IMG/VR virus record: IMGVR_UViG_3300045988_134667
Span: 8,223 to 72,222 of that record
Length of the DNA stretch: 64,000 bases
Strand: one strand, 5' to 3'
DNA from: a virus
The position numbers were made by a program, and so were the translations under genes. The notes under the pieces were generated by a model that was not told where the DNA came from, made no database searches, and worked only from the letters and a program-made list of their open reading frames with translations. Shown here piece by piece: positions 47,781-63,839 of the stretch. Numbering within the stretch: position 1 is the stretch's first letter; each line of letters begins with the position of its first letter.

Positions 47781-49140
47781 TACAATAGAGAGTCAGTTAT
47801 TGACTCTCTATAACAGAGGAGGTGAAACAATATAAATAAAGCGGAAAGACATGTAATAAACAAAAACCATCCAATGTATTTAGCTTGTGATAACTTATGT
47901 TTTCTGGCAAAGAATATGTATAATTTATGCAATTATACAATTCGCCAAGAATTCTTTGAGACAAAGAAAGTTAAGAAGTATGGTGACTTAAATAAGGAAC
48001 TAAAACATACAGATGCTTTTATGGAACTTGGATCAAATGCAGCACAGATGGTTACAAAAGCATTGTGTAAGTCTTGGAAATCATTTCTTGTATCAGTTAA
48101 AGATTATACTATTCATCCAGAAAAGTATTTGGGAAAACCTAAGATACCAGCTTATAAAAAGAAAGACGGTAGATTTGTTTGTACTTTAACTAATATGCAG
48201 ACTAAAGTGAAAGATGGTTATTTGTATTTTGCTTTTAAGAGAATGAAAGAGTATAACAATTTAATTCTCACAAAAGTTACAGGTCATCATTTGTCTACGA
48301 GAATTGTTCCAAAAGGTGGTTGTTATATTATTGAAATTGTTTATGACGATGAAAAGCAATGTAAAAGTGAATTGGATAGAAACAGAATTGCTTCGATTGA
48401 TTTAGGTGTAAATAACTTTGTAACAATGGTAAATAACATAGGAGAATCTTCTATTGTTATAAATGGCAAAGGAATTAAATCTTATAATCAGTATTGGAAT
48501 AAAAAGGTTTCTAAATTAAGAAGTATTGCGAAAACCGTAAATGGATCTGATTGGACTAAACAGATGCAGAGCCTTACAAATAAAAGATATTTCAAGATGG
48601 AGTATTTCATGCATTGTGCGAGCAAATGGATTGTTAGTTATTGTGTGAAACATAATATTGGAACACTTGTTATTGGTAAGAATGATGGTTGGAAACAGAA
48701 AACAAATATGTGTAAAATTACAAATCAGACTTTTACTCAAATACCATACGAAAGTTTTCTTGAAAAGCTTGGATATAAGTGTGAAGAAACTGGTATAGAT
48801 TTGATTAAAACAGAAGAAGCTTATACTTCAGGAACTTCTTTCTTAGACAATGAGTTACCTGTTAAAGAAAATTATAACAAGTCAAGAAGAGTTTATAGAG
48901 GATTATTTAAAAGCAACAACGGAGAATATATAAATGCCGATGTTAATGGTGCATTTCAAATAATGCGTAAAGTATTCTCAAATGTAAAAGCAGATGAGAT
49001 AGTGGGTGCATATTCACACCCTGTAATTATAAATTTGTAATTGTAAATGGAAAATAAAAAGCCAATGAATGCCAAGATTGATTCAATGCATGAGAAAAAT
49101 CTGTTTAAATTACAGCCAATGCCAAGTTTTGTGTATCAGG
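47781..49140 (+). mobile_element. IS200/IS605-family element carrying tnpB only (IS1341-like); right boundary approximate
   Basis: Perfect subterminal hairpin ATAGAGAGTCA-gttat-TGACTCTCTAT at 47785-47811, immediately upstream of tnpB. Repeated GCCAATG(A)ATGCCAAG segments lie downstream of tnpB, in the expected right-end / guide-RNA region. Confidence 0.55.
47874..49040 (+). CDS. tnpB: TnpB (IS605 OrfB-type RuvC-like RNA-guided nuclease family)
   Basis: RuvC-I IASIDLGVNNF, RuvC-II IGKNDGW, RuvC-III ADVNGAFQIMRKV. The usual CxxC zinc finger appears to be replaced. Confidence 0.7.
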   Translation: MYLACDNLCFLAKNMYNLCNYTIRQEFFETKKVKKYGDLNKELKHTDAFMELGSNAAQMVTKALCKSWKSFLVSVKDYTIHPEKYLGKPKIPAYKKKDGRFVCTLTNMQTKVKDGYLYFAFKRMKEYNNLILTKVTGHHLSTRIVPKGGCYIIEIVYDDEKQCKSELDRNRIASIDLGVNNFVTMVNNIGESSIVINGKGIKSYNQYWNKKVSKLRSIAKTVNGSDWTKQMQSLTNKRYFKMEYFMHCASKWIVSYCVKHNIGTLVIGKNDGWKQKTNMCKITNQTFTQIPYESFLEKLGYKCEETGIDLIKTEEAYTSGTSFLDNELPVKENYNKSRRVYRGLFKSNNGEYINADVNGAFQIMRKVFSNVKADEIVGAYSHPVIINL

Positions 49141-49151
49141 CGTAAATGAAA

Positions 49152-49196
49152 TACTATATATAGTGTTTATAGAAAATATAGGCACTATATATAGTG
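49152..49196 (+). promoter_or_regulatory. pair of perfect palindromes (C)ACTATATATAGT(G), 31 bp apart
   Basis: Core sites at 49153-49164 and 49184-49195, upstream of gene 49241. Confidence 0.55.
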
Positions 49197-49240
49197 GTAT
49201 TTTTACCAAGAAACATAGATTTCCTTCGGGATGAAAAGAG

Positions 49241-49570
49241 GTGAAGTTTTTGAAAATCGTACAGAATAAATCACATTATGATTTTAGAATAAAAATCGGA
49301 AATAACTATGTAACTGTTGCAACGCTTCATCCGTGGTTATTCAGTAAACATAATCATAAATACAGTCTGTATTTTTATTATTATGGAGCTGAATATGAAG
49401 AAGGAACGTATGCTTGTTGTCATAGAAATGGAAATGAAAAGATGACGGTATATGAACAAGAAAATGAACTTCATAAAGAATTTCTTGAAAGAGTGAGAAG
49501 AATAGTTTCAAAGAAACTGTATGTCATAGGAAGTTCGATCTTGGAAGAAATAAAGTATATTGAAGATTAG
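49241..49570 (+). CDS. hypothetical protein
   Basis: ORF track. Confidence 0.55.
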   Translation: MKFLKIVQNKSHYDFRIKIGNNYVTVATLHPWLFSKHNHKYSLYFYYYGAEYEEGTYACCHRNGNEKMTVYEQENELHKEFLERVRRIVSKKLYVIGSSILEEIKYIED

Positions 49571-49597
49571 GAGAATATATTAGCAGGAGGTGATGCG

Positions 49598-50281
49598 ATG
49601 AGCAAGATATACGATTATGAAGAATATCAAAATCAACGAGTAAAAGTTACATATACTGATAAAAGAAAATACAGAGAAGAAAACATTGTTGGTCTATATG
49701 GACAAGTTATTAAGACTACAAGTGGATCAATAGCGGTTCAGATTGATGGAATGTATAATGCAGCAAGCTCCAATGGATTATATTGGTTTAAAAGAAGTGA
49801 ATTGGATATTATTAGAGATGGAAGTGAGGATAATAAAATGACAGGATTTAATAAAGTGGCGATTGTAAATTTGGTAGATGATTACAATAAGAAGGATTAT
49901 GGATTTGCTTTATATGATGAAGATATGAATGAAATTGTTAAGTACGATACAAACCATCCGTTATATGTGATTGTAAATGCAAGAGGAAAAGATAATAGAG
50001 TCCTTGGAATTTTAAAAGAAGTAAAGTCAGTAGAAGCATATGGCAAGTGCGTAACGGCACAGGTCGTTGGAGTTGTTAATATGAATGCATACAATGCAAG
50101 AATTGATGAGGAAAATCGTCAGAAAGAAATTGCAAAGCAGAAAGCTTCTATTGAGAAGGAGTTAAAGTCTGAGATTGAAAAGATGAATAATATTGCTTTA
50201 TATGAAAAGATGGCAAAGGAGCATCCTGAGAATCCAAGACTCGCTGAACTTGTTAATGCACTGAAAGAGTTAGGAGAATAA
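49598..50281 (+). CDS. hypothetical protein
   Basis: ORF track; SD AGGAGGTGA. Confidence 0.6.
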   Translation: MSKIYDYEEYQNQRVKVTYTDKRKYREENIVGLYGQVIKTTSGSIAVQIDGMYNAASSNGLYWFKRSELDIIRDGSEDNKMTGFNKVAIVNLVDDYNKKDYGFALYDEDMNEIVKYDTNHPLYVIVNARGKDNRVLGILKEVKSVEAYGKCVTAQVVGVVNMNAYNARIDEENRQKEIAKQKASIEKELKSEIEKMNNIALYEKMAKEHPENPRLAELVNALKELGE

Positions 50282-50285
50282 ATAT

Positions 50286-50765
50286 ATGAAGATAGAATTA
50301 ATCAAATTAAAATTCAATGATACTCATTCTTATAAGCATAAGCCATTTACATATTGCTGTGATGAAATTCAAAATGATAAGGCTATTGTATTTACAGGTG
50401 AAGATTTGGTATGCAACGATACTTTTGGATTAGTAGTAAGAGATTCAGATGATAATATAATTCCTCAATTTTGTAATTCATACACCGAAACATTTAACTC
50501 TTGGGGTGATGAGTATGAGCAGACAGATAATTATCCAATTCAATTTTGCCCTCACTGCGGAGAGAAGATTGAGATTTCAGTCGTAGAAGAGATTGATGTA
50601 TCGGATAAATATGAAGAATTAACTAAGCAGCGTGATGAATTATGGAAGAGGTGTCAGAGAACAGACAGTAAGAAAGAAGAGAGTGAGTTGAGAAACAAGG
50701 TTAGAAAGCTGGATGACCAGATAAACGATTTCTATGAATTGTGTGAGTGGAAAGGAGAATATTAA
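50286..50765 (+). CDS. zinc-ribbon-containing protein
   Basis: FCPHCGEKI. Confidence 0.5.
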   Translation: MKIELIKLKFNDTHSYKHKPFTYCCDEIQNDKAIVFTGEDLVCNDTFGLVVRDSDDNIIPQFCNSYTETFNSWGDEYEQTDNYPIQFCPHCGEKIEISVVEEIDVSDKYEELTKQRDELWKRCQRTDSKKEESELRNKVRKLDDQINDFYELCEWKGEY

Positions 50766-50766
50766 A

Positions 50767-51087
50767 ATGGAGAATAGATTATTGTTTGAGAAAGATGTTA
50801 TTAGAGCAGTTGATAAACATACAAAAGATGATGATCGGCTGGACGATGATATTAGTTGTATTCTTGAAGAAATTACTTCACCAATTCAAGTCGGCTCAAT
50901 AATAATAGAGGATAATCCAATACAGAAACAGAGACGAATATTATTATTCGAGAATGAGAATCTTGACTTAGAGCAGCGTGGTAACAGATATTATTTATCA
51001 CTTTATGATAAGGAAGGAAAATTTCAGAGAGAAGTAACCATTGATGTAAAGGACGACTATAAAGTTGGACTTGGGAATGGTAAGTAG
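50767..51087 (+). CDS. hypothetical protein
   Basis: Trimmed to an ATG (MENRLLF) with SD GGAAAGGAGAA. Confidence 0.5.
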   Translation: MENRLLFEKDVIRAVDKHTKDDDRLDDDISCILEEITSPIQVGSIIIEDNPIQKQRRILLFENENLDLEQRGNRYYLSLYDKEGKFQREVTIDVKDDYKVGLGNGK

Positions 51088-51096
51088 AGGAGCTTT

Positions 51097-51285
51097 ATGA
51101 GATCAGAGATTAAAAGACGACAATTTTCTGAAAATCATCAATCTTGGTTCTCTCATGATTGTGCTTGTTGGGCAAATAATCACAATGGTTGGAGAAAGAT
51201 GAAAAAGAAGAATCGTAGATTATTTAAAAAGAAGTATAGAAGAGAAGTTGAAAATGATATTAATAAAGAATTGAATGATATGTAA
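51097..51285 (+). CDS. basic small protein
   Basis: ORF track. Confidence 0.45.
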   Translation: MRSEIKRRQFSENHQSWFSHDCACWANNHNGWRKMKKKNRRLFKKKYRREVENDINKELNDM

Positions 51286-51365
51286 TAACAGTAAATTCAG
51301 GTTTCTTTTGGACGCAAGGAGAGAATATATTAACAGATAAAGAAAACACAGAAAGGAATAAAATT

Positions 51366-52466
51366 ATGAAAATTATTGAAACAGGAACTACGTATAAGGT
51401 GTATGGTGAAGATTTAGTCGTATTAGACAATCTACCAGCCCAGACATACAAAGTCGGATTTGGTCAGTTCACAGGTTTCTTCTTAGAGAAGCAGAATGAA
51501 TTAGAGATTAAAGAGGATAAAATCTACGGAGTTCACGAAGAAAAAGCGAATAAGGTATTGAACAGATTTGAGAAGTCACGCAAAAATTTAGGTGTAATTC
51601 TCAGTGGGGATAAAGGGATTGGAAAGTCATTGTTTGCAAGATTATTGGCACAGAAAGCAATTCAGAATGGTATTCCTGTTATCTTAGTCGATGATTTTAT
51701 TCCTGGTATTGATGATTTCTTAAATGATATTAAGAATGAAGTGCTCGTGTTATTTGATGAATTTGATAAAACTTTCGCTAGAAGTAAAGACAACGATCCA
51801 CAGTCAAAAATGCTTTCCTTATTTGATGGTACAAGTTCAGGTAAGAAGTTATTTGTCGTTACATGCAATAATTATAGGAATTTGAACGAGTATCTTATTA
51901 ATAGACCAGGAAGATTTCATTTCCACTTCAGATTTGAGTATCCAACGGCAGATGAAGTAAAGGATTATTTGAGAGATAAGCTTAATGAGAAATACCATTC
52001 TGAAATCAATAAAGTAGCTTCATTCTCAAGAAAGATTAAGCTTAATTACGATTGTTTATCAGCTATCGCACTTGAATTAAATGAGGGCGAAACATTTGAG
52101 GATGCTATTAAGGATCTGAATATTGTTAAGTCCGAAGGACAGAATACATACAAACTTACATTGTTTACAGATGAAGGTGTTGTATTCAGTTCAAATGATG
52201 TAAGAATTGATTTATTCAGTGGAGAAAATAACAATATCTGGGTTGAAGATTCAGCAGATAATGGTATTTACATCAACTTCAAGGGTAACAGCGCAGTATT
52301 TAATAATAAGACCAATTCATTTGTTTTACCAAATGACAAAATTAAGGTTGATTATGATGAGGATTATATTGATGAAAAGCTGAGAGATATGTATAAAAAT
52401 CTGCATTATACTTATGCTGAGATTACATTGAATTATGGTAATCGCATTCACTATAACTTAGTGTAA
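51366..52466 (+). CDS. AAA+ ATPase
   Basis: Walker A GDKGIGKS, Walker B VLVLFDEFD, sensor VVTCNN, arginine-finger region RPGRF. Confidence 0.75.
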   Translation: MKIIETGTTYKVYGEDLVVLDNLPAQTYKVGFGQFTGFFLEKQNELEIKEDKIYGVHEEKANKVLNRFEKSRKNLGVILSGDKGIGKSLFARLLAQKAIQNGIPVILVDDFIPGIDDFLNDIKNEVLVLFDEFDKTFARSKDNDPQSKMLSLFDGTSSGKKLFVVTCNNYRNLNEYLINRPGRFHFHFRFEYPTADEVKDYLRDKLNEKYHSEINKVASFSRKIKLNYDCLSAIALELNEGETFEDAIKDLNIVKSEGQNTYKLTLFTDEGVVFSSNDVRIDLFSGENNNIWVEDSADNGIYINFKGNSAVFNNKTNSFVLPNDKIKVDYDEDYIDEKLRDMYKNLHYTYAEITLNYGNRIHYNLV

Positions 52467-52509
52467 CTTCACAGGAAAGCAACAACTCATCTGATTTTTA
52501 TGAAAAGAG

Positions 52510-53088
52510 GTGATAATTATAGCAGGCGGTAAAAAGAAAGGAAATAATTATATAGTAGATGAAGAACACCAAATAGCAAAAATCGAATTACAAAGAAGAA
52601 ATGGCAAAGAAAGTCTTTGGACAATTATAGATTTAGAAGATTTGGAAAGAGTAATTAATTTTCCATATACATGGTATTCAAGATATTTAAAAAATACTAA
52701 AAGCTATTATGTATTTGCAACCGTTTATTTAGGTGGTAAAAACGGACAACCAAGAAATAAAATAGTATCATTACATCAATTCATAATGAATACTACAAAA
52801 TATGTAGATCATATCGAACATAATACTCTTGATAATAGAAAGTCTAAACTTAGAATAATTTCCAATAAAAACAACTTAACGAACAGAAAAGGAAAGAACA
52901 TAAATAATACTTCTGGTTATAGAAATGTATCTTGGAACAAAGAGATGCAAAAATGGACAGTGCAAATACAAATAAATAAAAAATGTGTCGTTTTAGGAAC
53001 TTTCCCTAAAGAGCAACTTGAAGAAGCTGGAAAGTTTGCAGAAGAAATGAGACAGAAATATTATGGAGAATTTGCAGGTGTCGGATAA
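52510..53088 (+). CDS. HNH homing endonuclease with a C-terminal AP2-like DNA-binding domain
   Basis: HNH core LHQFIMN...VDHIEHNTLDNRKSKLRI, AP2-like SGYRNVSWNKEMQKWTVQIQINKKCVVLGTFPKEQLEEAGKFAEE. The start codon is uncertain (GTG inside the SD). Confidence 0.7.
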   Translation: MIIIAGGKKKGNNYIVDEEHQIAKIELQRRNGKESLWTIIDLEDLERVINFPYTWYSRYLKNTKSYYVFATVYLGGKNGQPRNKIVSLHQFIMNTTKYVDHIEHNTLDNRKSKLRIISNKNNLTNRKGKNINNTSGYRNVSWNKEMQKWTVQIQINKKCVVLGTFPKEQLEEAGKFAEEMRQKYYGEFAGVG

Positions 53089-53111
53089 CATATACGAAAG
53101 GATGAGTATAA

Positions 53112-53594
53112 ATGAATTTGAAAAAGATTAGAAGTGAAGATTTGGTTTTCAGTAATGAAATTGAAGATGATAGAACCAATACATACCTCACATTGAACGA
53201 TTATGATTGGATGAATTATAATCTGTCTACTCGTTTTAAGACAGAAGAGATGGGAGTATTAGAAATTGAGTTTGAATATTTCGGTATAGTTACTTCACAG
53301 ATGAATGTAAAACAGACATTAAACGGCAAGGTATATGAAATTACATATGAATATCCAACAGATATTTTCAGTAAAAATTTGATTAAGTTCTTAGAAAAAC
53401 ATATCAGACACTGGAATGAAAAATACACATTTAATGGCGAAGAAGAAGTTATAGATTTCTTTAATGAAGTTCTCGATAAAGGGACTGTTAAAGATGTTGC
53501 TGAAATCAATAAAGATGACAACAGACCACAATGCTGCATAGACCATGATAAATATTTTTCAACATGTGACACTTGTGAGTTTGGAGGTGATTAA
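53112..53594 (+). CDS. hypothetical protein
   Basis: ORF track. Confidence 0.55.
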   Translation: MNLKKIRSEDLVFSNEIEDDRTNTYLTLNDYDWMNYNLSTRFKTEEMGVLEIEFEYFGIVTSQMNVKQTLNGKVYEITYEYPTDIFSKNLIKFLEKHIRHWNEKYTFNGEEEVIDFFNEVLDKGTVKDVAEINKDDNRPQCCIDHDKYFSTCDTCEFGGD

Positions 53595-54071
53595 GTGTTA
53601 GTACCTGCAATTTTATACAAAGAACAGATCAAGAAAGAATTTCAGAAATATTACTATACAACAGATATGATGTATGAAACTGGTTGTATGTGCAATTGGA
53701 GTCCTGAAATTGCAGAATGTCCAAATGAGAGTCAATTCCAATATGCAATAGTTGATAAGAACGAAAAACTCATTGGCTATTTAGGATATTCCGTTGATTG
53801 GTATGTATCTAAAGCATATAACTTTGGATTGTTCTCATTTGACAGAGGAAATATCTTGGTTGGTAGGGACGTATTCGATAAATTAGAAGAACTGATTAAA
53901 ACATTACATAGAGTTGAATGGAGAGCTGTTGGTGGAAATCCTGCTTGTAGAGGTTACGATAACTTTATCGAGAGACATAATGGAATGAAACATGTTCTGA
54001 AAGATTCAATTAAAGATAAGAGTGGTAAATATCACGATGATATTATTTATGAGATTGTGAGTGGAGAATAA
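53595..54071 (+). CDS. hypothetical protein
   Basis: ORF track. Confidence 0.55.
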   Translation: MLVPAILYKEQIKKEFQKYYYTTDMMYETGCMCNWSPEIAECPNESQFQYAIVDKNEKLIGYLGYSVDWYVSKAYNFGLFSFDRGNILVGRDVFDKLEELIKTLHRVEWRAVGGNPACRGYDNFIERHNGMKHVLKDSIKDKSGKYHDDIIYEIVSGE

Positions 54072-54221
54072 TACATTGGAGGTGAAAACATAATGGGAAT
54101 GTATACAGAGATTAATGTGTGTTTTGATTTGTTAAGGAACACACCGAAAGAAATTGTAGATATTTTACATTGTTTTGTAGAAGGAACAGATGTTGAATAA
54201 ATTTAAAGGAGAATATTAAAC

Positions 54222-54533
54222 ATGGAAACAATTTTAAGATTATTAGCAGAGAATCCAGAAAGTTTAGGAGCGGTAGTAAAGACATACATTACAAAGTACA
54301 AAGAGCCTGTATATGATATTTTGAAGGAACTTATGATTATTGCAAAGGATTATTCTGAGAATACTGAATATCCTGCAATTCAAGCGAGAACTAAGAAAAA
54401 TATGTTTGATGCATATATAAATGTTGGATTTACAGAGGATCAGGCATTAGCACTTATGATTAACGATAATATTCAGCTTATGAAGAATATTCAGAAGTCA
54501 GTTAATAATACTCCTGTAAAAAAGAGCAAGTAG
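54222..54533 (+). CDS. hypothetical protein
   Basis: ORF track. Confidence 0.5.
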   Translation: METILRLLAENPESLGAVVKTYITKYKEPVYDILKELMIIAKDYSENTEYPAIQARTKKNMFDAYINVGFTEDQALALMINDNIQLMKNIQKSVNNTPVKKSK

Positions 54534-54563
54534 TGGTTTCGAAGTAAACCAATCTTTCTTTTG
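54534..54563 (+). terminator. rho-independent terminator
   Basis: TGGTTT-cgaagt-AAACCA followed by ATCTTTCTTTTG. Confidence 0.6.
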
Positions 54564-54679
54564 AAAATTTTTAATCATATCTAAGCCATTCGGCTATGGG
54601 AATCCCAGTAAATAAGAGAATATAGATACGAAAGGAGCAATAAGTGTCGGCTTAAACTTGCAAGGCTTCTATTAGTAAA

Positions 54680-55246
54680 ATGAATAAAAAATATAATATT
54701 ATTTATGCTGATCCACCTTGGGATTATGGAAATACTAAAAATCTCAACGGAGAATTTTGGGGAATGGCAGATAAACATTACGAGGTAATGAAATTTAAAG
54801 ATTTATGTAATTTACCAATCGGTAATATTGCAGCAGATGATTGTTTTTTATTTTTATGGGTTACATCGCCATTCCTTGAAAAAGGATTTGAACTTATAAA
54901 ATCATGGGGATTTAAATATGCAACTGTTGGTTTTGTATGGGTAAAGATGAAAAATGATATGTCAGAAGTTAGAAAAGATGGATTGGGCAAATATACTATC
55001 TCAAATGCGGAATATTGTCTAATAGCACGAAAAGGTAAATATTGGCGTGAAGCGAGAAATGTACAACAGATTATAGAATATCCCAAAACAGAACATTCTG
55101 AAAAGCCAAAAGAAATAAGAGACAGAATAGTATCTTTATGTGGTAATTTGCCAAGAGTAGAATTATTTGCAAGAGATTTATGTGAAGGTTGGGATTCTAT
55201 TGGCAATGAAATTGACGGAAGAGATATTAGAGATGTAATTAAGTAA
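54680..55246 (+). CDS. MT-A70-family N6-adenine DNA methyltransferase (orphan)
   Basis: Catalytic DPPW motif (IIYADPPWDYGN); about 190 aa, typical of phage MT-A70 MTases. Confidence 0.75.
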   Translation: MNKKYNIIYADPPWDYGNTKNLNGEFWGMADKHYEVMKFKDLCNLPIGNIAADDCFLFLWVTSPFLEKGFELIKSWGFKYATVGFVWVKMKNDMSEVRKDGLGKYTISNAEYCLIARKGKYWREARNVQQIIEYPKTEHSEKPKEIRDRIVSLCGNLPRVELFARDLCEGWDSIGNEIDGRDIRDVIK

Positions 55247-55270
55247 CAAGAAATTTTTCTTTCTTGGGAG

Positions 55271-55462
55271 GTGATTAATATATTTCATATAGAGAGAACT
55301 AAAGTCGAAAATGGATGCGATTGTTGGGGAAGACCAGAATATGATGATGTATACGAAGTTTATTGTAATGATGAGTTTATATGTCGTATGTCAAGTGATC
55401 CAACCGTATTAGTTGATAAGATAAATGATGTTTTAATTAATTATAGGAGAATAATTATATAG
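55271..55462 (+). CDS. hypothetical protein
   Basis: ORF track; start uncertain. Confidence 0.4.
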   Translation: MINIFHIERTKVENGCDCWGRPEYDDVYEVYCNDEFICRMSSDPTVLVDKINDVLINYRRIII

Positions 55463-55507
55463 GACAGCTAATTGATAAAACAGTATTATGAAAATCGGAG
55501 GAAAAGA

Positions 55508-55702
55508 ATGAAAAGAGGAGATATTATTGAATTAATTGAGGATACAACATTTTATAAAAAAGGTAAGAAGGCTTATTTTATTGGTAGGTCAAATACTAAT
55601 CCCAATAATATCGAAATTGTTTGGGTTGGTGAAGAACAGTCTTATAAAGATGGCGATATAGATGAATTTCCAGCTAGATTATTTTTAAATAGTGGAGAAT
55701 AA
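55508..55702 (+). CDS. hypothetical protein
   Basis: Trimmed to an ATG (MKRGDIIEL) with SD GGAGGAAAAGA. Confidence 0.5.
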   Translation: MKRGDIIELIEDTTFYKKGKKAYFIGRSNTNPNNIEIVWVGEEQSYKDGDIDEFPARLFLNSGE

Positions 55703-55706
55703 TTTT

Positions 55707-55901
55707 ATGAACAATGGAGTAAATTACACAATCATCAGTAGACCTTCTTATATTACATTTGAGTGCCCATTTTGCCATGAAGAAGTTGAAGTGAATTTTG
55801 ATAAAGTTGATTTCAATAGTGATTATTGGGGAGATGGTGCTTGGTGTGATTGTCCTAAATGTGGTGAGGAAGTGGAACTTGATGATTATGAGTACGATTA
55901 G
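55707..55901 (+). CDS. zinc-ribbon protein
   Basis: CPFCHEE...CDCPKCGEE. Confidence 0.5.
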   Translation: MNNGVNYTIISRPSYITFECPFCHEEVEVNFDKVDFNSDYWGDGAWCDCPKCGEEVELDDYEYD

Positions 55902-55955
55902 GAGAATAATATTATGAAGGGCAAATATAAAAGTTGCGACATAGAGTAGAACGAG

Positions 55956-56342
55956 GTGATTAATATTTCAGAATTACATGATAAATTTGAAAAAATAAGT
56001 GATGCTATAAAAGTCTTAATGGTTAGTAAGCAGATGGACGCAATAGGGAAAATGATAAGTGCAATGTCAGAAGCTCAAATACAAAATGAACTTGAACAAA
56101 AATATAAAGACTTAGGCATACAGGTACAAGAAGATCCGATTGCAAAGCTTCTTGAAACAATTAATGAAATGCATTTTGGCGATAATTTTCCTATTGAATG
56201 CCTTGAACCTCCAAAACAAGAGTTATCTACTCTTAAAAAGAGAATAAAGTATTGTAAGAATCCTATGGAGAAAAAGAAATTAGAGCAGGAATTAAATGCT
56301 TTATATAAAGAACATAAAAGAAATAGGAGAATAATATCATGA
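55956..56342 (+). CDS. hypothetical protein preceded by a disrupted copy of the MKGKYK... gene start
   Basis: Track ORF begins at a GTG that abuts a GAGG. The ATG (about 55913) and SD belong to a roughly 60-bp segment duplicated at 56322-56386. Confidence 0.5.
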   Translation: MINISELHDKFEKISDAIKVLMVSKQMDAIGKMISAMSEAQIQNELEQKYKDLGIQVQEDPIAKLLETINEMHFGDNFPIECLEPPKQELSTLKKRIKYCKNPMEKKKLEQELNALYKEHKRNRRIIS

Positions 56343-56533
56343 AAGGTAAATATAAAGGTTGTGACATAGAAGTAGAACGAGGTGGTTCAGAGTTCTTGAC
56401 CTTTGCAGTATTCGATAATGGATATGAAGTGACAAGTGGATTTTCTGAAAGTAGCGACACTGTAAGAGATTATTATAGCTATATGAAAAGTGTAGTAGAT
56501 GACTATAAAGAACATCCAGAAGATTACGAATAG
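56339..56533 (+). CDS. hypothetical protein (intact copy of the MKGKYKGCDIEVERGG N-terminus)
   Basis: ORF track. Confidence 0.5.
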   Translation: MKGKYKGCDIEVERGGSEFLTFAVFDNGYEVTSGFSESSDTVRDYYSYMKSVVDDYKEHPEDYE

Positions 56534-56545
56534 GAGGATAACTAT

Positions 56546-57289
56546 ATGGATAATTTAACATACAGAGAAGAAGTAAATCTTTATGAAACAATTCAAAAAT
56601 CGTTTCCTAAAATTCTAATCAAGGATCTTACAGAATACGAAAGAATTTGTCCTGTCTGCAATGGTCTTGGAATGAGAATAGAAGACAATATTTATGGAAT
56701 CAAAGGCGATAGTTCTGAAGCTGGTAGAAAATATCATTTTCCATACAAGCATCAAGCACTTTCATTTTGTCAGAGTTGTTTTAATGGAGTACAGCAATTA
56801 TGTCCTTATTGTGGACAGTCTTATAAGAATCAGGGATATATGCATTGTGATTGTGAAGGACAGAAGAAAGCTGACGAAGAAGAGAGGATAAAGAAGTGGA
56901 GTGATAAAGTATCTAAAGCAGTTCCAGTTGATGAAAAAGATGTAAACACGATGCTTTACTGTGAAGAGTTTGACGAGTATTACGATACTGTTGATGATTT
57001 CTTTGACGATTATTTTGGGCGTTATACAGATGAAGAATTTAATAATGATGGCAGACCTGAGAGATTATGGGTGTGCAGCGTGGAGAAGATTCATATTGAT
57101 GCTGATAATGTAGTTGATAATGCTTGCGAAGAGTTACATGAAGATGCTTATGAACAGTGTGATATTGGTGGTCTGCAAAATTTGTTAGATACCTGGTGTA
57201 AGGATCAGACAGGAGCTACTACATATTATCCATGTTATAAGCAGTATGTAGAAATTGATTGGAGTGAATATGAAGATTATAGCAGGTAA
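56546..57289 (+). CDS. multi-zinc-finger protein
   Basis: CPVCNGLG, CQSCFNG, CPYCGQS, HCDCEGQ. Confidence 0.6.
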   Translation: MDNLTYREEVNLYETIQKSFPKILIKDLTEYERICPVCNGLGMRIEDNIYGIKGDSSEAGRKYHFPYKHQALSFCQSCFNGVQQLCPYCGQSYKNQGYMHCDCEGQKKADEEERIKKWSDKVSKAVPVDEKDVNTMLYCEEFDEYYDTVDDFFDDYFGRYTDEEFNNDGRPERLWVCSVEKIHIDADNVVDNACEELHEDAYEQCDIGGLQNLLDTWCKDQTGATTYYPCYKQYVEIDWSEYEDYSR

Positions 57290-57494
57290 TTATTTTGGTA
57301 AAAATATTCAGTTTGTATGTAGAAGCTATAACTGTGTATATGAAGTTGAATCAAAGGATGATTGGAATATTCGAATGGTATTTCCTAACTATTGTAGTTT
57401 TAAATATAAAGTTCCTGAATATGAAGTAGTTTGTCCTAATTGTGGTCATAGAGAATATCTTGGTTGTGATCAAGATGACTTAATAGGGGACTGA
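57270..57494 (+). CDS. zinc-ribbon protein
   Basis: CPNCGHREY; trimmed to an ATG. Confidence 0.45.
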   Translation: MKIIAGNYFGKNIQFVCRSYNCVYEVESKDDWNIRMVFPNYCSFKYKVPEYEVVCPNCGHREYLGCDQDDLIGD

Positions 57495-57604
57495 ATCTGA
57501 AAATTTGCATTGTCCTTGGATTCCTCTATTAAAGAAGAGAGAAGATTGGAATGAACGATATAGGGTTGAGCCAATAAGAGAATAAACATAAGGAGAATAA
57601 TTAT

Positions 57605-57895
57605 ATGTACGAAATTGTAGAAGATGAATATAACCAGTTTTTACAAGATATAGCAGACGGTTCAATGATATTCGGAAAATATATTAATGAATCAGAATAC
57701 GAAGATGAATATTCTCACAATGATATTGACGAAGCACAAGATAAATTTATTGAAAAAGTCAGAGAATACCTACATGAAAACTATCCTGGTAAATATATAG
57801 TGTCAGGCAGTTGGTGTGTATTTGTTATGACACCTGATAGAGCGAGAGAAGGTCATATATCAGAGAGAACAATAGAGCTGTTTACAGTGAAATAA
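57605..57895 (+). CDS. acidic hypothetical protein
   Basis: ORF track. Confidence 0.5.
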   Translation: MYEIVEDEYNQFLQDIADGSMIFGKYINESEYEDEYSHNDIDEAQDKFIEKVREYLHENYPGKYIVSGSWCVFVMTPDRAREGHISERTIELFTVK

Positions 57896-57963
57896 GAAAT
57901 CAAGAAAGATTCGTTTCTTGCGGAAATTTAAAAGGAGAATATAAGAGTAGGAGGTAAAATTAA

Positions 57964-58545
57964 ATGCATTATTGCGTTCATTTACTCACAAAAGAATTAC
58001 CAAGTGAGAATAAAATTGCAACAATTATGAAGCCATACAATTCAGAACTTGTATATGGCTCAGATGATGAAGAAGACAAACAGATTAATTATCCAGTTTT
58101 TACATGGGATTACTATCGAATCGGTGGCAGGTACAAGGCTGAATTAAAACTAAAAGTAGATAAAGGAGGATCGGCAAATAGTGAATATTATAATTGGGGT
58201 TATTATGACAGACAAGATAGAAACGGCAGATTGTTTTGGTCAAGTCTTTTATCAACATTAAAAGAGAATATTGCACCTGAATGGATGTATCATGAGGAAG
58301 ATTGGTTTATGAATATGGGTTTTGGCGATGGATATATTCTTGTTGATGGAGCAAAACAAAGCGATGTTTTAAATATTAACAAGCTTGGATGTTACATATG
58401 TATTCTTCCTGACGGTTCAGCTATTGCAAGAGATTCATGGGATGGTAAAGATATTATCAAAGATGAAAAATTTGATGAAAAATATAAACAGGCTATAACA
58501 GATAATATGGATGGATTTATTACAGTGCTTGATATCCATGATTAA
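57964..58545 (+). CDS. hypothetical protein
   Basis: ORF track; SD AGGAGG. Confidence 0.55.
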   Translation: MHYCVHLLTKELPSENKIATIMKPYNSELVYGSDDEEDKQINYPVFTWDYYRIGGRYKAELKLKVDKGGSANSEYYNWGYYDRQDRNGRLFWSSLLSTLKENIAPEWMYHEEDWFMNMGFGDGYILVDGAKQSDVLNINKLGCYICILPDGSAIARDSWDGKDIIKDEKFDEKYKQAITDNMDGFITVLDIHD

Positions 58546-58641
58546 GAATGAATATATTTTATTTTAAAGATAGGAGTGATATAAACGAGAGTATATAAAG
58601 ATAAACAGTATCTCATTTTTGATTATGAAGATGGACGTACT

Positions 58642-59715
58642 GTGAAATATGATTTCGCAACAAAGACTGCTATTGGAATTAAAGGTAAACCAGTAAAAAA
58701 TCTATGTAGTCAACTAAGTGGCTTTACCTTAAATGAGTTATTTGATTGTTGTGATGATGAAAAGTATGCAAAGTTTTTACGATTTATTAGAAATTCAGAA
58801 ACATACTCATATTCAATAAGCAACATAGGAACAATTCTTGATAGAGTTCCAAGATATGATAGATTTGAACAAATCTTTTCAGCAGGATTTGATGACATTA
58901 TCAAAGATGGTTATCGGTTCAAGTATTCTATAAATGAGATTCCAAAATCTCTAATCAAATTATGTCGTAAATATCCCATTAAATTATCAAATAATACTGT
59001 TAAGTATTATAAAGAAAATCAAGATGCGCATTACATAGCTTATAACTTGGATTATCTAAGTTTAGATTCTGATGATATTTATATCGTTTGGAATACAGAA
59101 ACATGGGATAGAGTTGATGGTGCTTGTATTTATTATTCTTTTTTCAATGAATTAGTGAATGAATTTGGATATAACGCAAAGGATTTATGGTTGTATCTGG
59201 ATAGAATCAAGACATTTGAGGCAGTTGAAGATATGGGTTTCTTAATTCGTGAATTGTACGATTATGCTAATATGATGAATCAACTTAGCCCAAAGTATGA
59301 AAAATATCCAAGACATTTCCTTACTACACATAGAATTGCTTGTAGAAATTACAATCGAATGAAGAAAGAATTCTCAGAAGAGTTATTTAAAAAGAGAATA
59401 AATAAACAGTACGAATGCTCTTTTGGTGATTACATATTTATTTATCCAGAATCTACACAGGATATTAAAGATGAAGCGACAATGCAAAACAACTGCGTAG
59501 CATCATACATAGATAAGGTTATTGATGGCGAATGTCACATTCTTTTCTTGAGAAAGAAGAATAAACCAGATGAGAGTTTGGTAACGATTGAAGTAAGAAA
59601 TAACCATATTGTACAAGCTAGACGAAGATTCAATGATGAAGTAACAGCAGAGGATCAGAAAGCTATTGATGCGTTTAATAAAAAGTTTGCAAATAAGGAG
59701 GATAAAGCAGCATGA
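58642..59715 (+). CDS. PcfJ-like protein
   Basis: C-terminal MQNNCVASYIDKVIDGECHILFLR...VTIEV resembles the PcfJ-domain signature; assigned from memory of the family. Confidence 0.45.
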   Translation: MKYDFATKTAIGIKGKPVKNLCSQLSGFTLNELFDCCDDEKYAKFLRFIRNSETYSYSISNIGTILDRVPRYDRFEQIFSAGFDDIIKDGYRFKYSINEIPKSLIKLCRKYPIKLSNNTVKYYKENQDAHYIAYNLDYLSLDSDDIYIVWNTETWDRVDGACIYYSFFNELVNEFGYNAKDLWLYLDRIKTFEAVEDMGFLIRELYDYANMMNQLSPKYEKYPRHFLTTHRIACRNYNRMKKEFSEELFKKRINKQYECSFGDYIFIYPESTQDIKDEATMQNNCVASYIDKVIDGECHILFLRKKNKPDESLVTIEVRNNHIVQARRRFNDEVTAEDQKAIDAFNKKFANKEDKAA

Positions 59716-60152
59716 TTAAAGGTGATCGAATTAAATTAGTTAAGAAGATGGGTGTGTTTGATAACATCGGTGAGATTTGTGAAGTAACTGATATTCAGGA
59801 AGGTGGAGTAATCTGCTTTAAGTTTGGTGGTTGCCATCTTGGTTGTATGTCATATGACGAGTATGAAAAGTATTTTGAAAAGGTTGAGACACCTGTAAAG
59901 AGAACTTGGAGTGAGTGGAGTTTGGCACACGAACTTACTTTTATTGATATTAGGGGTGATGAAAAGACCATTAAATATCAGTATAGAGATAATGGTAGGA
60001 GAGTCCAGGTTAGAAGTGGTGCTTTGAAAGCAGGTTCGTCTTGCTATGACGAGGATGAATTTAGTCTTAGTAGTGGTTTGGAATTGGCAGAGATGAGATT
60101 GGTTGTAAAATATCTCAACAATCAGGTTAAGTCGATTGCAAAGGCGATGTAA
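59712..60152 (+). CDS. hypothetical protein
   Basis: ORF track. Confidence 0.5.
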   Translation: MIKGDRIKLVKKMGVFDNIGEICEVTDIQEGGVICFKFGGCHLGCMSYDEYEKYFEKVETPVKRTWSEWSLAHELTFIDIRGDEKTIKYQYRDNGRRVQVRSGALKAGSSCYDEDEFSLSSGLELAEMRLVVKYLNNQVKSIAKAM

Positions 60153-60167
60153 GAGGAGAATAAATAT

Positions 60168-60689
60168 ATGAAAACAAAAATTATTAGTGCATTCCCTGCT
60201 TGTGGTAAGACATATGCTTTTAAAAAACTAAATGAGAAAGGCTACAAGATTCTTGATAGTGATAGCAGTCAGTTTAGTTGGTGCTATGATTATAATCCAG
60301 TTAATTCAGATAAAATTGAAAGGTATCGCAATCCTGAATTTCCAAAAAATTATATTCAGCATATTAAAGAGAACATTGGAAAAGTTGATTATATCTTTGT
60401 AAGCAGCCATAAAGAAGTTAGAGACGCTTTGATTGAGAATGGAATTTATTTCACATTAGTTTATCCTGGCAGAAAGATGAAAGCTGAATGGGTTGGTAGA
60501 TGCTTCTTGCGTGGAAGTGGCGAAGAGTTCTGTCAGCTCATTGCAGACAATTGGGACAAATGGATTGATGAAATGGAAGAAGTAGAAGATTGTGATAGAT
60601 ATATTCTTGGTGAAGATGATTCTATTGATCCAGATGACTTAGATAGATATTACTACTTAGGAGAATTAATCGAAAAAGGATTGGTTTAA
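60168..60689 (+). CDS. P-loop NTPase / small nucleotide-kinase-like protein
   Basis: Walker A SAFPACGKTYAF close to the N-terminus. Confidence 0.55.
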   Translation: MKTKIISAFPACGKTYAFKKLNEKGYKILDSDSSQFSWCYDYNPVNSDKIERYRNPEFPKNYIQHIKENIGKVDYIFVSSHKEVRDALIENGIYFTLVYPGRKMKAEWVGRCFLRGSGEEFCQLIADNWDKWIDEMEEVEDCDRYILGEDDSIDPDDLDRYYYLGELIEKGLV

Positions 60690-60728
60690 AGAACAAATAA
60701 CAATATATAGAAAAATTAAAAAATAATA

Positions 60729-60773
60729 CACTATATATAGCGGTTAAATAAAATAAAACTACTATATATAGTA
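60729..60773 (+). promoter_or_regulatory. pair of palindromes CACTATATATAGCG / TACTATATATAGTA, 31 bp apart
   Basis: Sites at 60729-60742 and 60760-60773, upstream of gene 60828. Confidence 0.55.
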
Positions 60774-60827
60774 ACAAAATGGACAAGAAATATCGGTTTC
60801 ATGCGAAGTTTAGAAAGAGAGAAAAAT

Positions 60828-61169
60828 ATGAAAATTTTAGAAGGACACGAAAAAGAATACAAGGATTGGTACGACAAGAATAGTGACGGATACAGCAGAG
60901 CTTGCTTCACTTATGCTGAAAGGTGGGCTGAACTGCTAGAAGCAGAAATTGACAAGGGCAATGATGTTATGAAGTGCTTTGTTGATAATGCAGACAGATT
61001 GAGCCGTGAAGCAGACACAGAGGGTATAACAGGGTTTATGTACGGATGTGCAGTTAGTATTCTTTCACAGTGTTGGAAGTATGGAGAATATCTTAGAAAG
61101 TGGCACAATAAGGAATACAGCTATGATGGTGATGGTGTTGTGAATCCAGCAATTTTAACAATTGGTTAA
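60828..61169 (+). CDS. hypothetical protein
   Basis: Trimmed to an ATG (MKILEGH). Confidence 0.5.
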   Translation: MKILEGHEKEYKDWYDKNSDGYSRACFTYAERWAELLEAEIDKGNDVMKCFVDNADRLSREADTEGITGFMYGCAVSILSQCWKYGEYLRKWHNKEYSYDGDGVVNPAILTIG

Positions 61170-61201
61170 GAGAATATAAAGCAAAGGAGATTTAAAAAAG
61201 A

Positions 61202-61492
61202 ATGAATTTTGGACAGGCAATTGAAGCTTTAAGGAACGGTAAAAAGGTAGCAAGAGTTGGGTGGAACGGTAAAGGTATGTTTTTGTATATGACAACAGGA
61301 AGTGTTGTTCATTTAGATGAAATGAAATCAGAAACAGCAAATTATTTAAGAAGTTTTTGTAAAGATAAAGGTATGGACGAAATTGAAATTTGTCCACATA
61401 TTGATATGAAGACAGCAGACAATAAGTTAGTTATTGGATGGCTTGCGAGTCAGACAGATATGCTTGCAGAAGATTGGGACGTGGTAGAATAA
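61202..61492 (+). CDS. DUF2829-family protein (Thoeris anti-defence Tad2-like candidate)
   Basis: N-terminus MNFGQAIEALRNGKKVARVGWNGKGMF matches the characteristic DUF2829 opening (M.FGEA.EALK.GKKV.R.GWNGKG). Confidence 0.55.
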   Translation: MNFGQAIEALRNGKKVARVGWNGKGMFLYMTTGSVVHLDEMKSETANYLRSFCKDKGMDEIEICPHIDMKTADNKLVIGWLASQTDMLAEDWDVVE

Positions 61493-61499
61493 AATAATA

Positions 61500-61544
61500 T
61501 ACTATATATAGTTTACACTAAATAAATGCACACTACATATAGTG
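61500..61544 (+). promoter_or_regulatory. pair of palindromes TACTATATATAGTT / CACTACATATAGTG, 31 bp apart
   Basis: Sites at 61500-61513 and 61531-61544, upstream of gene 61597. Confidence 0.5.
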
Positions 61545-61596
61545 ATAAAAGTACCAAGAATTTTCGATTTCTTTTAGAGAATATACATAAGGAGGA

Positions 61597-62457
61597 TTGA
61601 TACATACGAATTTAATACAAGCATTAGAAAAGCAGATTGAGTTCTGTAATCAATATACAAGATATAAATGTGGGGTATTTGTAAGAACAAAAGAACAATG
61701 CGAGATTGTAATGAAATGCATTTCAAACTTATTGTTAGATCAAAGCAATACTCAATTAAAAAATTATGCATGGAAGTTAAGTTGCTATTGGAATAATGGT
61801 AATTGTATTGAAGTATTGTCTGTAAATGATTCCATACGAGGATATAAATTTAATGGTGTAATAATTGAAAATGAAATCGAAAGAGATGTTGTTAATTCTT
61901 TGATTATGCCATATTTAATGGTAAGGACTGATTCTACTGGACATAAAATTGAAGAATTTAATAATGTTAAAGAGAGAATATTTACAGTAGATATTAGCAA
62001 GAGTGATATCACCGAAAGTAAAAATCGTTCAATTTATATTTCGACTGGTTGGCAGAGAAATATATTAAGTAGAAGATTGAGAAGTTCAAATATATTTATT
62101 GATGAAAGTTTTAAGAAGGAGTATACATGTATGTTTAATAATCACACAGCAGCTTTTAGAGTTGCACAGGTAGGAACAGATAAGATTTATGTTTACAATG
62201 CAATTGGTATTCCAAAGGAGAATATTAAATATGAGACAGAGTTTGTCAATAGAACCAAGGAAACTTATCTAAATATCAAAGGTGAACATAAAGTTGAAGG
62301 TATTGGATTTGAGAATGAAATAGATGTTCATTTGCTTATTGATACTAATGTATATGATAAGTATGAAGTTGATTTCCATGATGGTCTTGTTTTTGTTTTT
62401 TTACATGAAATTATCAATGAGAAGCCTGTTTTAGAGGATGTTTCAAAGAATAGTTAA
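61597..62457 (+). CDS. hypothetical protein upstream of the Thg1-like gene
   Basis: ORF track. The TTG start directly abuts the SD, so the true start is uncertain. Confidence 0.5.
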   Translation: MIHTNLIQALEKQIEFCNQYTRYKCGVFVRTKEQCEIVMKCISNLLLDQSNTQLKNYAWKLSCYWNNGNCIEVLSVNDSIRGYKFNGVIIENEIERDVVNSLIMPYLMVRTDSTGHKIEEFNNVKERIFTVDISKSDITESKNRSIYISTGWQRNILSRRLRSSNIFIDESFKKEYTCMFNNHTAAFRVAQVGTDKIYVYNAIGIPKENIKYETEFVNRTKETYLNIKGEHKVEGIGFENEIDVHLLIDTNVYDKYEVDFHDGLVFVFLHEIINEKPVLEDVSKNS

Positions 62458-62490
62458 GAGAGAATAATATATTAAAAGAGAGGTACATAT

Positions 62491-63348
62491 ATGCCAGTAC
62501 ATGATGATTTAGGCGTTAGGATGAAGACATTTTATGAGCAGATCCCAAAGACAAAACTGATGAGAAGGTGTCCAGTTGCTATCCGCATTGATGGAAAAGC
62601 GTTTCACACATTCACAAGAGGATTCCAGAAACCGTTTGATGAAGTGTTAATTAAGTCTATGCAGGAAACAATGAAATACTTATGTGAGAATATTCAGGGC
62701 TGTGTTCTTGGTTACACGCAGTCAGATGAGATTACACTAATTCTTATTGATTATAAGAAGCTCACATCTTCCGCATGGTTTGATTATGAAGTGCAAAAGA
62801 TTTGTAGTATTGCTGCAAGTATGGCTACGATGGCATTTAATACATTCTTTGCTAAAAATGTTTATTTTACTGATAAGTTTGATGAACATGGGAATATCAT
62901 TGACGAAGAATATGTTTCTATTCATTTAGCCCATGTCAAAGCAGTTGACAAAGGTGCAATGTTCGATGCTCGTTGTTTCAATATTCCAAAAGAAGAAGTG
63001 ACAAATCTCATATATTGGAGACAATTAGACGCTTCTCGTAATTCAATTCAGATGGTAGGTCAAGCCAATTTTTCACACAAGGAATTACAGAATAAGTCAT
63101 GTAATGATATTCAAAACATGCTTATGACTCAGAAAGATATTAACTGGAACGATTTACCGACTTATCAGAAGAGAGGAAGCTGTTGTGTAAAAATGTATCA
63201 GACTGCTAATGGTGTTTTTGAAAGTCATGCAGAAGATGAATTAGTCGAAAATGGCAGGACATATTGGAGTATTGATACAAATATCCCTATTTTCAAGGGC
63301 GAAGGTAGAGAATATATTGATAGGTTAGTATTCGTTGGTGAAGAGTAA
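62491..63348 (+). CDS. Thg1-like protein (tRNA-His guanylyltransferase / 3'-5' nucleotidyltransferase family)
   Basis: VAIRIDGKAFHTFTRGFQKPFDEVLIKSM resembles the Thg1 N-terminal catalytic-core segment. MFDARCFNIPKEEVTNLIYWRQLD matches the downstream Thg1 WRQ region. Confidence 0.6.
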   Translation: MPVHDDLGVRMKTFYEQIPKTKLMRRCPVAIRIDGKAFHTFTRGFQKPFDEVLIKSMQETMKYLCENIQGCVLGYTQSDEITLILIDYKKLTSSAWFDYEVQKICSIAASMATMAFNTFFAKNVYFTDKFDEHGNIIDEEYVSIHLAHVKAVDKGAMFDARCFNIPKEEVTNLIYWRQLDASRNSIQMVGQANFSHKELQNKSCNDIQNMLMTQKDINWNDLPTYQKRGSCCVKMYQTANGVFESHAEDELVENGRTYWSIDTNIPIFKGEGREYIDRLVFVGEE

Positions 63349-63591: not shown

Positions 63592-63839
63592 AGTCGAAGG
63601 AAACTGACATTTCTTTGGCTTTACAAACCTAGTGTTTATAAGGGTTTCAGAGGTCAAAAATTTCAAAAATGCTCAAATCGAGCAAAATCCCTAATTTTCA
63701 ATGATTTTTAGAGAATAACAAAAATGAGGTGCTGAAAACCCTTATAAATCAAGGGTTTTACAGTATCAATATCAAGAAACAGAGAATATAAGAATAGCAA
63801 GAAATCACTGTTTCATGTGAATTTTGAGGAGGTGAGAAA

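Follow-up and report, generated by a model that had tools for sequence, protein, structure and literature searches.

Why does a phage place the same pair of 12-bp palindromes, at one fixed spacing, ahead of several of its genes, and what reads them? The question is raised by a stretch of viral DNA of 64,000 nucleotides (positions 8,223 to 72,222 of IMG/VR virus record IMGVR_UViG_3300045988_134667; this whole stretch, numbered from its first letter, is called the window here), for which an earlier note had described three such pairs and proposed either a cooperatively bound dimeric regulator or a novel class of promoter served by a phage sigma factor. Judging from sequence comparison, we conclude with high confidence that the pairs are operators of the type bound by the bacterial repressor NrdR, and thus represent a known motif rather than an element of a new class. 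Binding and regulation by NrdR at these sites we consider probable, at roughly 0.8.

The exact 12-mer ACTATATATAGT occurs in the window at 49153, 49184, 60761 and 61501, four matches against 0.01 expected from dinucleotide-preserving shuffles (none of 100 such shuffles reached four), and copies with one mismatch at 60730 (ACTATATATAGC) and 61532 (ACTACATATAGT) complete the three pairs, which are therefore as real as the earlier note had taken them to be; perfect palindromes make up four of the six cores that it listed. One of its coordinates needs correction, as the last copy starts at 61532 and not at 61533, so that the start-to-start spacing is 31 bp in each of the three pairs and not 31-32 bp. 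All three lie in intergenic gaps ahead of + strand genes, as had been stated, with the second palindrome ending ~45-55 bp before the start codons at 49241/49250, 60828 and 61597, and a further core at 60700 (ACAATATATAGA) lies 30 bp upstream of the one at 60730. A relaxed pattern (C.A.AT.T.G, 21-22 nt, C.A.AT.T.G) gave four matches in the window against 0.01 in Markov simulations, the fourth being a pair at 23394-23441. Alignment of the first three sites revealed ~95 bp of common sequence in the same orientation, beyond the palindromes, laid out as an A-rich stretch, a box, 19 nt, a second box, ~10 nt and then CAAGAA-N3-T-N-G-N-TTTC, which starts 11 nt past the second box in each of them. A profile hidden Markov model of this module, built from related loci, found exactly these three places in the window (E = 2e-20, 1e-16 and 5e-12).

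These features coincide with those of a known operator. An NrdR site consists of two partially palindromic 16-bp boxes placed 15-16 bp apart, with conserved C4, A6, A8, T9, T11 and G13; binding requires both boxes, and the linker counts by its length alone (PMC13584703, PMC12051234). The protein binds as a tetramer that sets one Zn-ribbon dimer on each box, and a single box is not bound (PMC13584703, PMC9110341). Linker lengths of 14-17 bp are tolerated in NrdR operators. The 12-mer of the window corresponds to positions 3-14 of the 16-bp box and holds all six key bases, and a core-to-core gap of 19-20 bp is equivalent to the canonical linker of 15-16 bp (19 nt giving a 15-nt linker). When compared with experimentally bound boxes of E. 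coli, GCACTATATATAGACT (nrdDG box 1) and CCCCTATATATAGTGT (nrdAB), the window core was found to be identical at 11 of 12 positions to box 1 of nrdDG and to box 1 of nrdAB.

A scan that asked for the six key bases only, in two boxes 14-17 bp apart, returned four sites in the window, all on the + strand. Site 1 comprises box 1 at 49151-49166 (ATACTATATATAGTGT, exact core 49153-49164) and box 2 at 49182-49197 (GCACTATATATAGTGG, exact core 49184-49195). Site 2 has box 1 at 60728-60743 (ACACTATATATAGCGG, a core with one mismatch) and box 2 at 60759-60774 (CTACTATATATAGTAA, exact core), preceded by a third box, box 0, at 60698-60713 (TAACAATATATAGAAA). Site 3 has box 1 at 61499-61514 (ATACTATATATAGTTT, exact core) and box 2 at 61530-61545 (ACACTACATATAGTGA, a core with one mismatch), and site 4 is the relaxed pair at 23394-23441, with boxes at 23394 (AATCAATATATTGTGA) and 23426 (CTACAATATATAGTAC). 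The linkers measure 15, 15, 15 and 16 bp at sites 1 to 4, with 14 bp between box 0 and box 1 of site 2, and each of the nine strong boxes (those of the four pairs, the relaxed one included, and box 0 at 60698) has the full set of six key positions. A degenerate sequence resembling box 0 also precedes site 1 (ATGCCAAGTTTTGTGT, 49119-49134, + strand, with five of the six key positions and a 16-bp linker to box 1); it lies inside a 3' remnant of nadE, is weak, and may be a chance match. Among variant boxes in the related phage loci, changes fall at positions 3, 5, 7, 9, 10, 12 and 14 only; none touches C4, A6, A8, T11 or G13, and the sole change at T9 is T to A, which was tolerated in a published mutational study. 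Taken together, the core, the six key positions, the linker length and the confinement of substitutions to non-critical positions make a chance resemblance appear very unlikely. The cooperative dimeric regulator proposed earlier thus survives in kind, as a multimer that needs both sites three helical turns apart, with the amendment that the protein would be the NrdR tetramer, one Zn-ribbon dimer per box.

The same sequence is found where NrdR is known to act. A scan of bacteria for the identical exact pair, with one genome per species, returned at least 120 loci from many phyla. Pfam searches of the 144 open reading frames (ORFs) that flank these pairs, among the matches listed, gave NRDD in 38, Ribonuc_red_lgC in 23, the class II N-terminal domain in 11 and the ATP-cone in 34; at 69 of the 120 listed bacterial loci a flanking ORF belongs to one of the three largest homology clusters, and 68 such ORFs are in the reductase cluster. 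Since the exact pair is flanked by reductase genes in so many phyla, its sequence can be equated with the known reductase operator of the hosts, and in bacteria it is, on this comparison, the operator of ribonucleotide reductase operons.

The pair is widespread in viruses too. At least 120 loci on viral contigs in IMG/VR carry it in its exact form, and the contigs listed are mostly 80-215 kb long and from gut-type samples; this bears out the conservation in related phages on which the earlier note had staked its proposal. Of these viral pairs, 91 have a gap of 19 bp between cores and 25 a gap of 20 bp (together 116 of 121 among the matches listed, for a linker of 15 or 16 bp). At least six or seven cassette families, A to G, can be told apart by linker and flanks, with a layout common to all; site 1 of the window is of form A, site 2 of form B (with box 0) and site 3 of form C. 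The form A cassette at 49068-49223 recurs at 88-98% identity (mostly 92-97%) in more than 50 contigs, and what follows the cassettes is diverse: the first genes belong to at least 16 families in 39 copies of form A and to at least 12 in 31 copies of form B. Sequence identity with the NrdR operator, its conservation and its gene context are all matters of observation here.

Two of the families show a further regularity, in that box 2 is the exact reverse complement of a box 1 that is not itself palindromic. These are family D (loci L005, L009, L035, L037, L042, L066 and L076) and family E (L012, L037 and L109), with ACCATATATAGT / ACTATATATGGT and ACAATATATAGT / ACTATATATTGT as their boxes; the whole operator therefore has dyad symmetry about the centre of the linker, which may reflect a two-fold symmetric NrdR tetramer, a hairpin, or repair templated by a hairpin.

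If the pairs are NrdR operators, which NrdR would bind them? Regular-expression and tblastn searches (four NrdR queries, those of E. coli and B. subtilis among them) found no NrdR homologue in the window, in ~1 Mb of sequence from 120 related loci or in MT835469, an unannotated gut phage with a complete genome of 176 kb, and because no phage gene for NrdR was found, the NrdR of the host is the likely binder as far as sequence can tell. The literature places NrdR in a wide range of bacteria, Clostridia among them; NrdD of the related phages shares 63% identity with that of metagenome-assembled genomes of gut Clostridia and Oscillospiraceae, in which the nrdD promoters carry the identical ACTATATATAGT pair. 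A DNA-binding protein of the phage itself (of XRE, RHH or AbrB type, or an NrdR homologue encoded outside the window) might instead read the palindromes, with the likeness to NrdR boxes due to mimicry or coincidence. Some gut phages do carry nrdR homologues (PMC10294663), and our view of this genome comprises 64 kb plus ~10 kb beyond; a profile scan of viral contigs for NrdR yielded three loci only, however, on small contigs (17-58 kb), none of which appears by name in the list for this phage family, and coincidence is hard to reconcile with the match in core, key positions and linker and with the confinement of substitutions, so that we regard a phage-encoded reader as very improbable. The 131-amino-acid (aa) Zn-ribbon protein encoded after the pair in MT835469 was considered as a binder and rejected, as it has no homologue in the window and is without the RRRR motif. 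Hardly credible, finally, is the promoter class that the earlier note had suggested for a sigma factor at 33033. The cassettes do lack the canonical TTGACA box seen in other promoters of the window, and the ORF concerned (32985-33593) has a weak sigma-factor match in PHROGs (E = 1e-8), but this is its only such match, without a Pfam sigma domain; the -35/-10 elements that sigma factors read are asymmetric, unlike two identical palindromes at a distance of 31 bp, and the same pattern of 43-44 bp adjoins reductase genes across many bacterial phyla that do not contain this phage.

The palindromes might also act as nucleic-acid structure (a hairpin or cruciform), serving as a terminator, an attenuator, an RNA stability element or a recombination site in the shuffling of cassettes, or they might act mainly as decoys. 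Site 1 (form A) folds at -28.5 kcal/mol (z = -6.2), with 20 pairs followed by the T-run GTATTTTT, and scores as an intrinsic terminator; the reverse-complementary boxes of families D and E and the position of cassettes at mosaic junctions fit a structural role as well. Sites 2 and 3, however, fold weakly (z = -4.1 and -0.7), have no T-run and do not qualify as intrinsic terminators, about five variant pairs are uncompensated, the mosaic junction maps to a small downstream hairpin and not to the boxes, and the identity with bacterial reductase operators would be left unexplained, all of which makes structure improbable as the function of the pairs. An Rfam search of the sites gave just chance matches to microRNA hairpins, far below gathering scores. 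As decoys, operators on the replicating phage genome would titrate host NrdR and thereby de-repress reductase genes of host and phage and raise deoxynucleoside triphosphate levels, with regulation in cis secondary. There are at least four operators in 64 kb, and three or more per 13 kb in relatives (L037), nearly all of their boxes are consensus-perfect, and the NrdR regulon rises during phage infection (PMC6755750). A pure decoy, on the other hand, would have no need of an orientation and of distances to hairpin and ribosome-binding site that are fixed in at least six independent cassette families, and the relative MT835469 has one pair only in 176 kb; we judge it improbable that titration is the main role, and decoy action could well accompany regulation in cis.

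Operators read by the NrdR of the host, then, remain our preferred explanation, and binding of this protein in vivo, repression through such binding and the location of the promoter are what we infer from it. With ATP (adenosine triphosphate) only, NrdR forms a dodecamer that does not bind DNA, whereas in the joint presence of dATP (deoxyadenosine triphosphate) and ATP tetramers assemble, which occupy the two boxes, kink the DNA and repress transcription (PMC9110341). Each pair would thus be a tandem operator for the Zn-ribbon/ATP-cone repressor NrdR of the host, with the genes behind the cassettes repressed when dATP is plentiful and released when it falls, as during DNA replication, and the operator would couple these accessory genes to the deoxynucleotide status of the host. 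In S. pneumoniae the NrdR regulon of the host is strongly induced in lytic phage infection (PMC6755750), which makes release during phage infection plausible. In the cassette, box 1 (at times preceded by box 0) and box 2 are set 15 bp apart, and after ~10 nt there follow a small GAAA-N6-TTTC hairpin, a ribosome-binding site and the gene. Our best guess is that a weak -10-like element lies at the edge of box 1 or box 2, and that bound NrdR would occlude RNA polymerase or block its passage; an A/T-rich -10-like element at the 3' edge of box 2 would, by conjecture, place the transcript start at the base of the hairpin and give the transcript a 5'-terminal stem-loop.

As to the promoter, the only sigma-A candidates that overlap the boxes are weak; those that match at 9 of 12 positions are present at site 1 (TTTATA-18-TATAGT) and site 3 (TTGGGA-18-TATACT), and are not above shuffled expectation. 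A canonical sigma-A promoter inside the cassette seems unlikely, there being no consistent -35/-10 pair and no TTGACA box, and a comparison by eye across cassette families found no consistent match to the SPO1-type middle or late promoter consensus. In the bacterial operators TATAAT abuts box 1 in two loci (L181, L189) and the promoter follows box 2 in three others (L125, L143, L214); boxes may therefore lie after, on or before a promoter, and position alone decides nothing. Canonical promoters do exist elsewhere in the window: TTGACA-17-TATACT occurs at 6426 and 6528 (6426-6460 and 6528-6562, with an upstream TG, 100 bp apart) and a perfect TTGACA-17-TATAAT at 30811-30840. They lie near the switch in coding strand and GC skew at ~5-6 kb and near the integrase region, and may be the main early promoters.

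Several points weigh against regulation by NrdR at these sites. No ribonucleotide reductase gene follows any of the four sites in the window, and no reductase was found among 109 ORFs that directly flank the exact pair in viral loci, among the matches listed, so that the genomic context by which NrdR sites are usually recognised is missing. This contrast with the reductase flanks of the bacterial pairs is the unusual part of the finding; location in the promoter of a reductase operon bears on whether a site belongs to the regulon and not on what the binding site is. The presence of NrdR in the host is an assumption, and it is not obvious why anti-defence genes should be repressed at high dATP. 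As no convincing sigma-A -35/-10 pair occupies a fixed position in the cassette, the target of repression is undefined. Identical palindromes will also form a hairpin, which in form A resembles a terminator, and a structural role is possible. Finally, one gene found behind site 3, encoding a 286-aa protein, has an identical leader but no boxes in two related contigs, and the operator must therefore be dispensable for that gene.

The same comparison locates a mosaic junction. In those two contigs the stretch homologous to the window starts at, or within, the small hairpin past box 2, which marks this hairpin as the junction; the NrdR boxes have been added to it, and in the window they bracket a cassette of two anti-defence genes, Tad4 and Tad2, on both sides. 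Across 111 oriented modules the hairpin (CAAGAAA-N6-TTTCTTG or a co-varying version) starts 11 nt past the core of box 2 in 92, and 10-22 nt past it in the remainder. At site 1 it lies at 49207-49223 (CAAGAAACATAGATTTC, again 11 nt past the box 2 core), at site 2 at 60784-60800 (CAAGAAATATCGGTTTC) and at site 3, where it is the mosaic junction of the relatives, at 61555-61571 (CAAGAATTTTCGATTTC), all on the + strand. Hairpins of the same type, CAAGAAA-N6-TTTCTTG(G), stand between a stop codon and the next GGAGG ribosome-binding site elsewhere in the window (55247-55266, 57901-57920, 63597-63616, 13629-13646 and 28348-28364), and in all there are 8 stems of at least 6 bp against 2.5 expected. 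Their arms co-vary across families (CAAGAAA/TTTCTTG, CATGAAA/TTTCATG and, with a G-U pair, ATGAAA/TTTCGT), and the hairpin coincides with recombination junctions in relatives (L249 8183-8205; L250 ~8190). Possible functions are stabilisation of the 5' end, processing, and a junction for shuffling.

The genes behind the sites are mostly accessory in kind, and all are on the + strand. Site 1 is followed by a gene of ~109 aa with no assigned function (49241-49570, starting at 49241 or 49250), homologues of which occur after form A cassettes in six loci. The first gene after site 2 (60828-61169, called as 113 aa on the source contig) encodes a homologue of Tad4, the inhibitor of type I Thoeris (Pfam PF25186, E = 2.4e-36), and is followed by a gene similar to Tad2 (Thoeris anti-defence 2; 61202-61492, PF11195, E = 3.9e-27). 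After site 3 (61597-63348) come the gene for the 286-aa protein (61597-62457), which has no match in Pfam or PHROGs, and one for a Thg1-like tRNA-His guanylyltransferase (62491-63348). The 286-aa ORF is kept beside the Thg1-like gene in relatives; on the source contig it is called as 248 aa with a start at ~61711, which leaves its true start, and with it the distance to the operator, in doubt.

Cargo in the relatives includes a nicotinamidase-like isochorismatase, DUF5662, NAPRTase, KptA/Tpt1, Thg1-like, Tad4 and Tad2 proteins, and behind form G an NAD (nicotinamide adenine dinucleotide)-dependent DNA ligase gene (ligA) followed by nrdD (L024, L074). A set of genes centred on NAD (NadE, PncA-like isochorismatase, DUF5662, NAPRTase, NAD-dependent LigA and KptA/Tpt1) lies near or behind NrdR cassettes in L042 (3353-5628), L037 (9716-11055), L024/L074 and L009 (10185-10922). 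The company of these genes with Tad4 and Tad2 suggests a counter-measure to NAD-depleting defences such as Thoeris.

MT835469, the sole match when the cassettes were compared by BLAST with GenBank phages, carries its one pair in a different setting. In the subgroup to which it belongs (MT835469 78839-79290, equivalent to L242 28839-29290, and also L016, L028, L045 and L053) the pair is found 1 kb past a DNA polymerase III alpha gene, the hairpin stands ahead of box 1 and not downstream, the 131-aa CxxC...CxxC Zn-ribbon protein begins ~15 nt past box 2, apparently at a non-ATG start, and nrdD follows 8.6 kb further on the same strand. Site 4 of the window, likewise, has an arrangement (23394-23545) unlike that of the three cassettes: behind the pair come a terminator-like hairpin (~23451-23490, gctgttggtac...gtactagcagc with a T-run) and then a textbook promoter, TTGACA-17-TAATAT, at ~23511-23539, ahead of an ORF at 23564.

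Site 1 lies 112 bp past the stop codon of a gene for TnpB (OrfB_IS605 and TNB domains). The element that carries it, an IS605-type element without TnpA at ~47838-49071 (ORF 47874-49040), is 80% identical to MT835469 41303-42531, a site free of boxes. An origin of the repeats in the end of this element or in its omega-RNA was rejected, since 52 other form A cassettes have no TnpB upstream and the element ends at ~49071; the presence of TnpB beside site 1 is incidental. The 85 bp upstream of box 1 at site 1 are the 3' tail of nadE (NAD synthetase), a gene that is intact in ~45 relatives and of which only the last 23-32 codons are left in the window (~32 codons there) and in about nine other loci. 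The TnpB element occupies the place of the intact 245-aa nadE (SGGKDS motif) of the relatives, and the remnant at 49047-49145 is abutted by the right end of the element and hence by its presumed omega-RNA guide.

Other products encoded in the window are an integrase, a DNA methyltransferase, an HNH endonuclease, ParB-like and PcfJ-like proteins and many small unknowns, and the contig from which it comes (ENA ERZ28577141 scaffold_211, 74 kb) continues into YorF/SSB-like, RecJ-like and DNA polymerase III alpha genes, a replication module of the SPbeta-like kind. The pairs had been described as preceding late-region genes; their flanks, which hold TnpB, Tad4, Tad2-like, Thg1-like, PcfJ-like and unassigned proteins just upstream of the replication module, do not fit that description. 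The single-strand promoter of the leading region of a conjugative element, hinted at by the PcfJ, ParB-like and anti-defence genes, was rejected as well, the relatives being IMG/VR viral contigs and a phage-type replication module following the window. A 685-aa protein is ~60% identical to proteins of large Bacillus and Clostridioides phages, and the G+C content of ~32% and the use of GGAGG ribosome-binding sites fit a Firmicute host.

NrdR has been regarded as a repressor dedicated to ribonucleotide reductase genes. Here a consensus-perfect NrdR operator recurs throughout the accessory and anti-defence region in a whole clade of uncultivated gut phages, almost never beside a reductase. If NrdR does bind, counter-defence and NAD-salvage genes of a phage would be wired to the dATP/ATP balance of the host, and the expression of anti-defence would be tied in a new way to nucleotide pools, which are manipulated by several defence systems. 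More tentatively, and as a scenario that we still hold to be doubtful in its entirety, a clade of large, uncultivated gut phages with an SPbeta-like replication module may have adopted host NrdR as the switch of a portable operator-hairpin cassette that heads hypervariable counter-defence slots, whose Tad4, Tad2 and NAD-salvage cargo would be released when dATP falls, at the onset of phage replication or upon nucleotide depletion driven by defence; the operators may at the same time titrate NrdR and so raise reductase expression. In practical terms the cassette is easy to search for and, in metagenomic phages, can point the way to variable accessory slots and so to new anti-defence genes, and the operator points to a host that bears NrdR and uses ribosome-binding sites of the GGAGG type.

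How does this compare with known systems? Our literature search, in which few subscription journals were covered, returned, among the results listed, no report of NrdR operators in phage accessory loci or with anti-defence genes; within the literature searched, what is new is the deployment of a known operator as a repeated, consensus-perfect, portable cassette placed before anti-defence and NAD-related accessory genes and not before reductase genes. The bacterial tandem boxes (E. coli nrdAB, nrdDG and nrdHIEF; L. monocytogenes nrdAB and nrdDG; S. coelicolor nrdRJ) have the same 16-bp box, key positions, 15-16 bp linker and centre-to-centre distance of three helical turns, and a third box 0, as at site 2, is sometimes present in bacterial nrd operons too. 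Unlike those operons, the phage operator heads non-reductase genes (Tad4, Tad2-like, Thg1-like and unknowns) and is repeated as a conserved cassette with a downstream hairpin.

Among phages, the nearest parallel in layout is offered by the promoter-early stem-loop (PeSL) cassettes of T4-type phages, reportedly described by Arbiol, Comeau, Krisch and colleagues in 2010. PeSL cassettes carry a defined sigma-70 early promoter and a stem-loop. Both are short conserved intergenic regulatory elements that, with a stem-loop, flank highly variable accessory genes at recombination junctions; the two differ in that their sequences are unrelated, that phage group and host phylum are not the same, and that the cassettes described here carry the operator of a host repressor. 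In logic the closer counterpart is found in phage genes under LexA control, LexA boxes preceding coliphage 186 tum, CTXphi rstA and the promoters of Bacillus phage GIL01. There a mobile element has taken over an operator that belongs to a conserved repressor of its host, so that its genes respond to the physiology of that host, and the same logic would apply here. The signal in the present case would be the dATP/ATP balance, sensed through NrdR, and not DNA damage.

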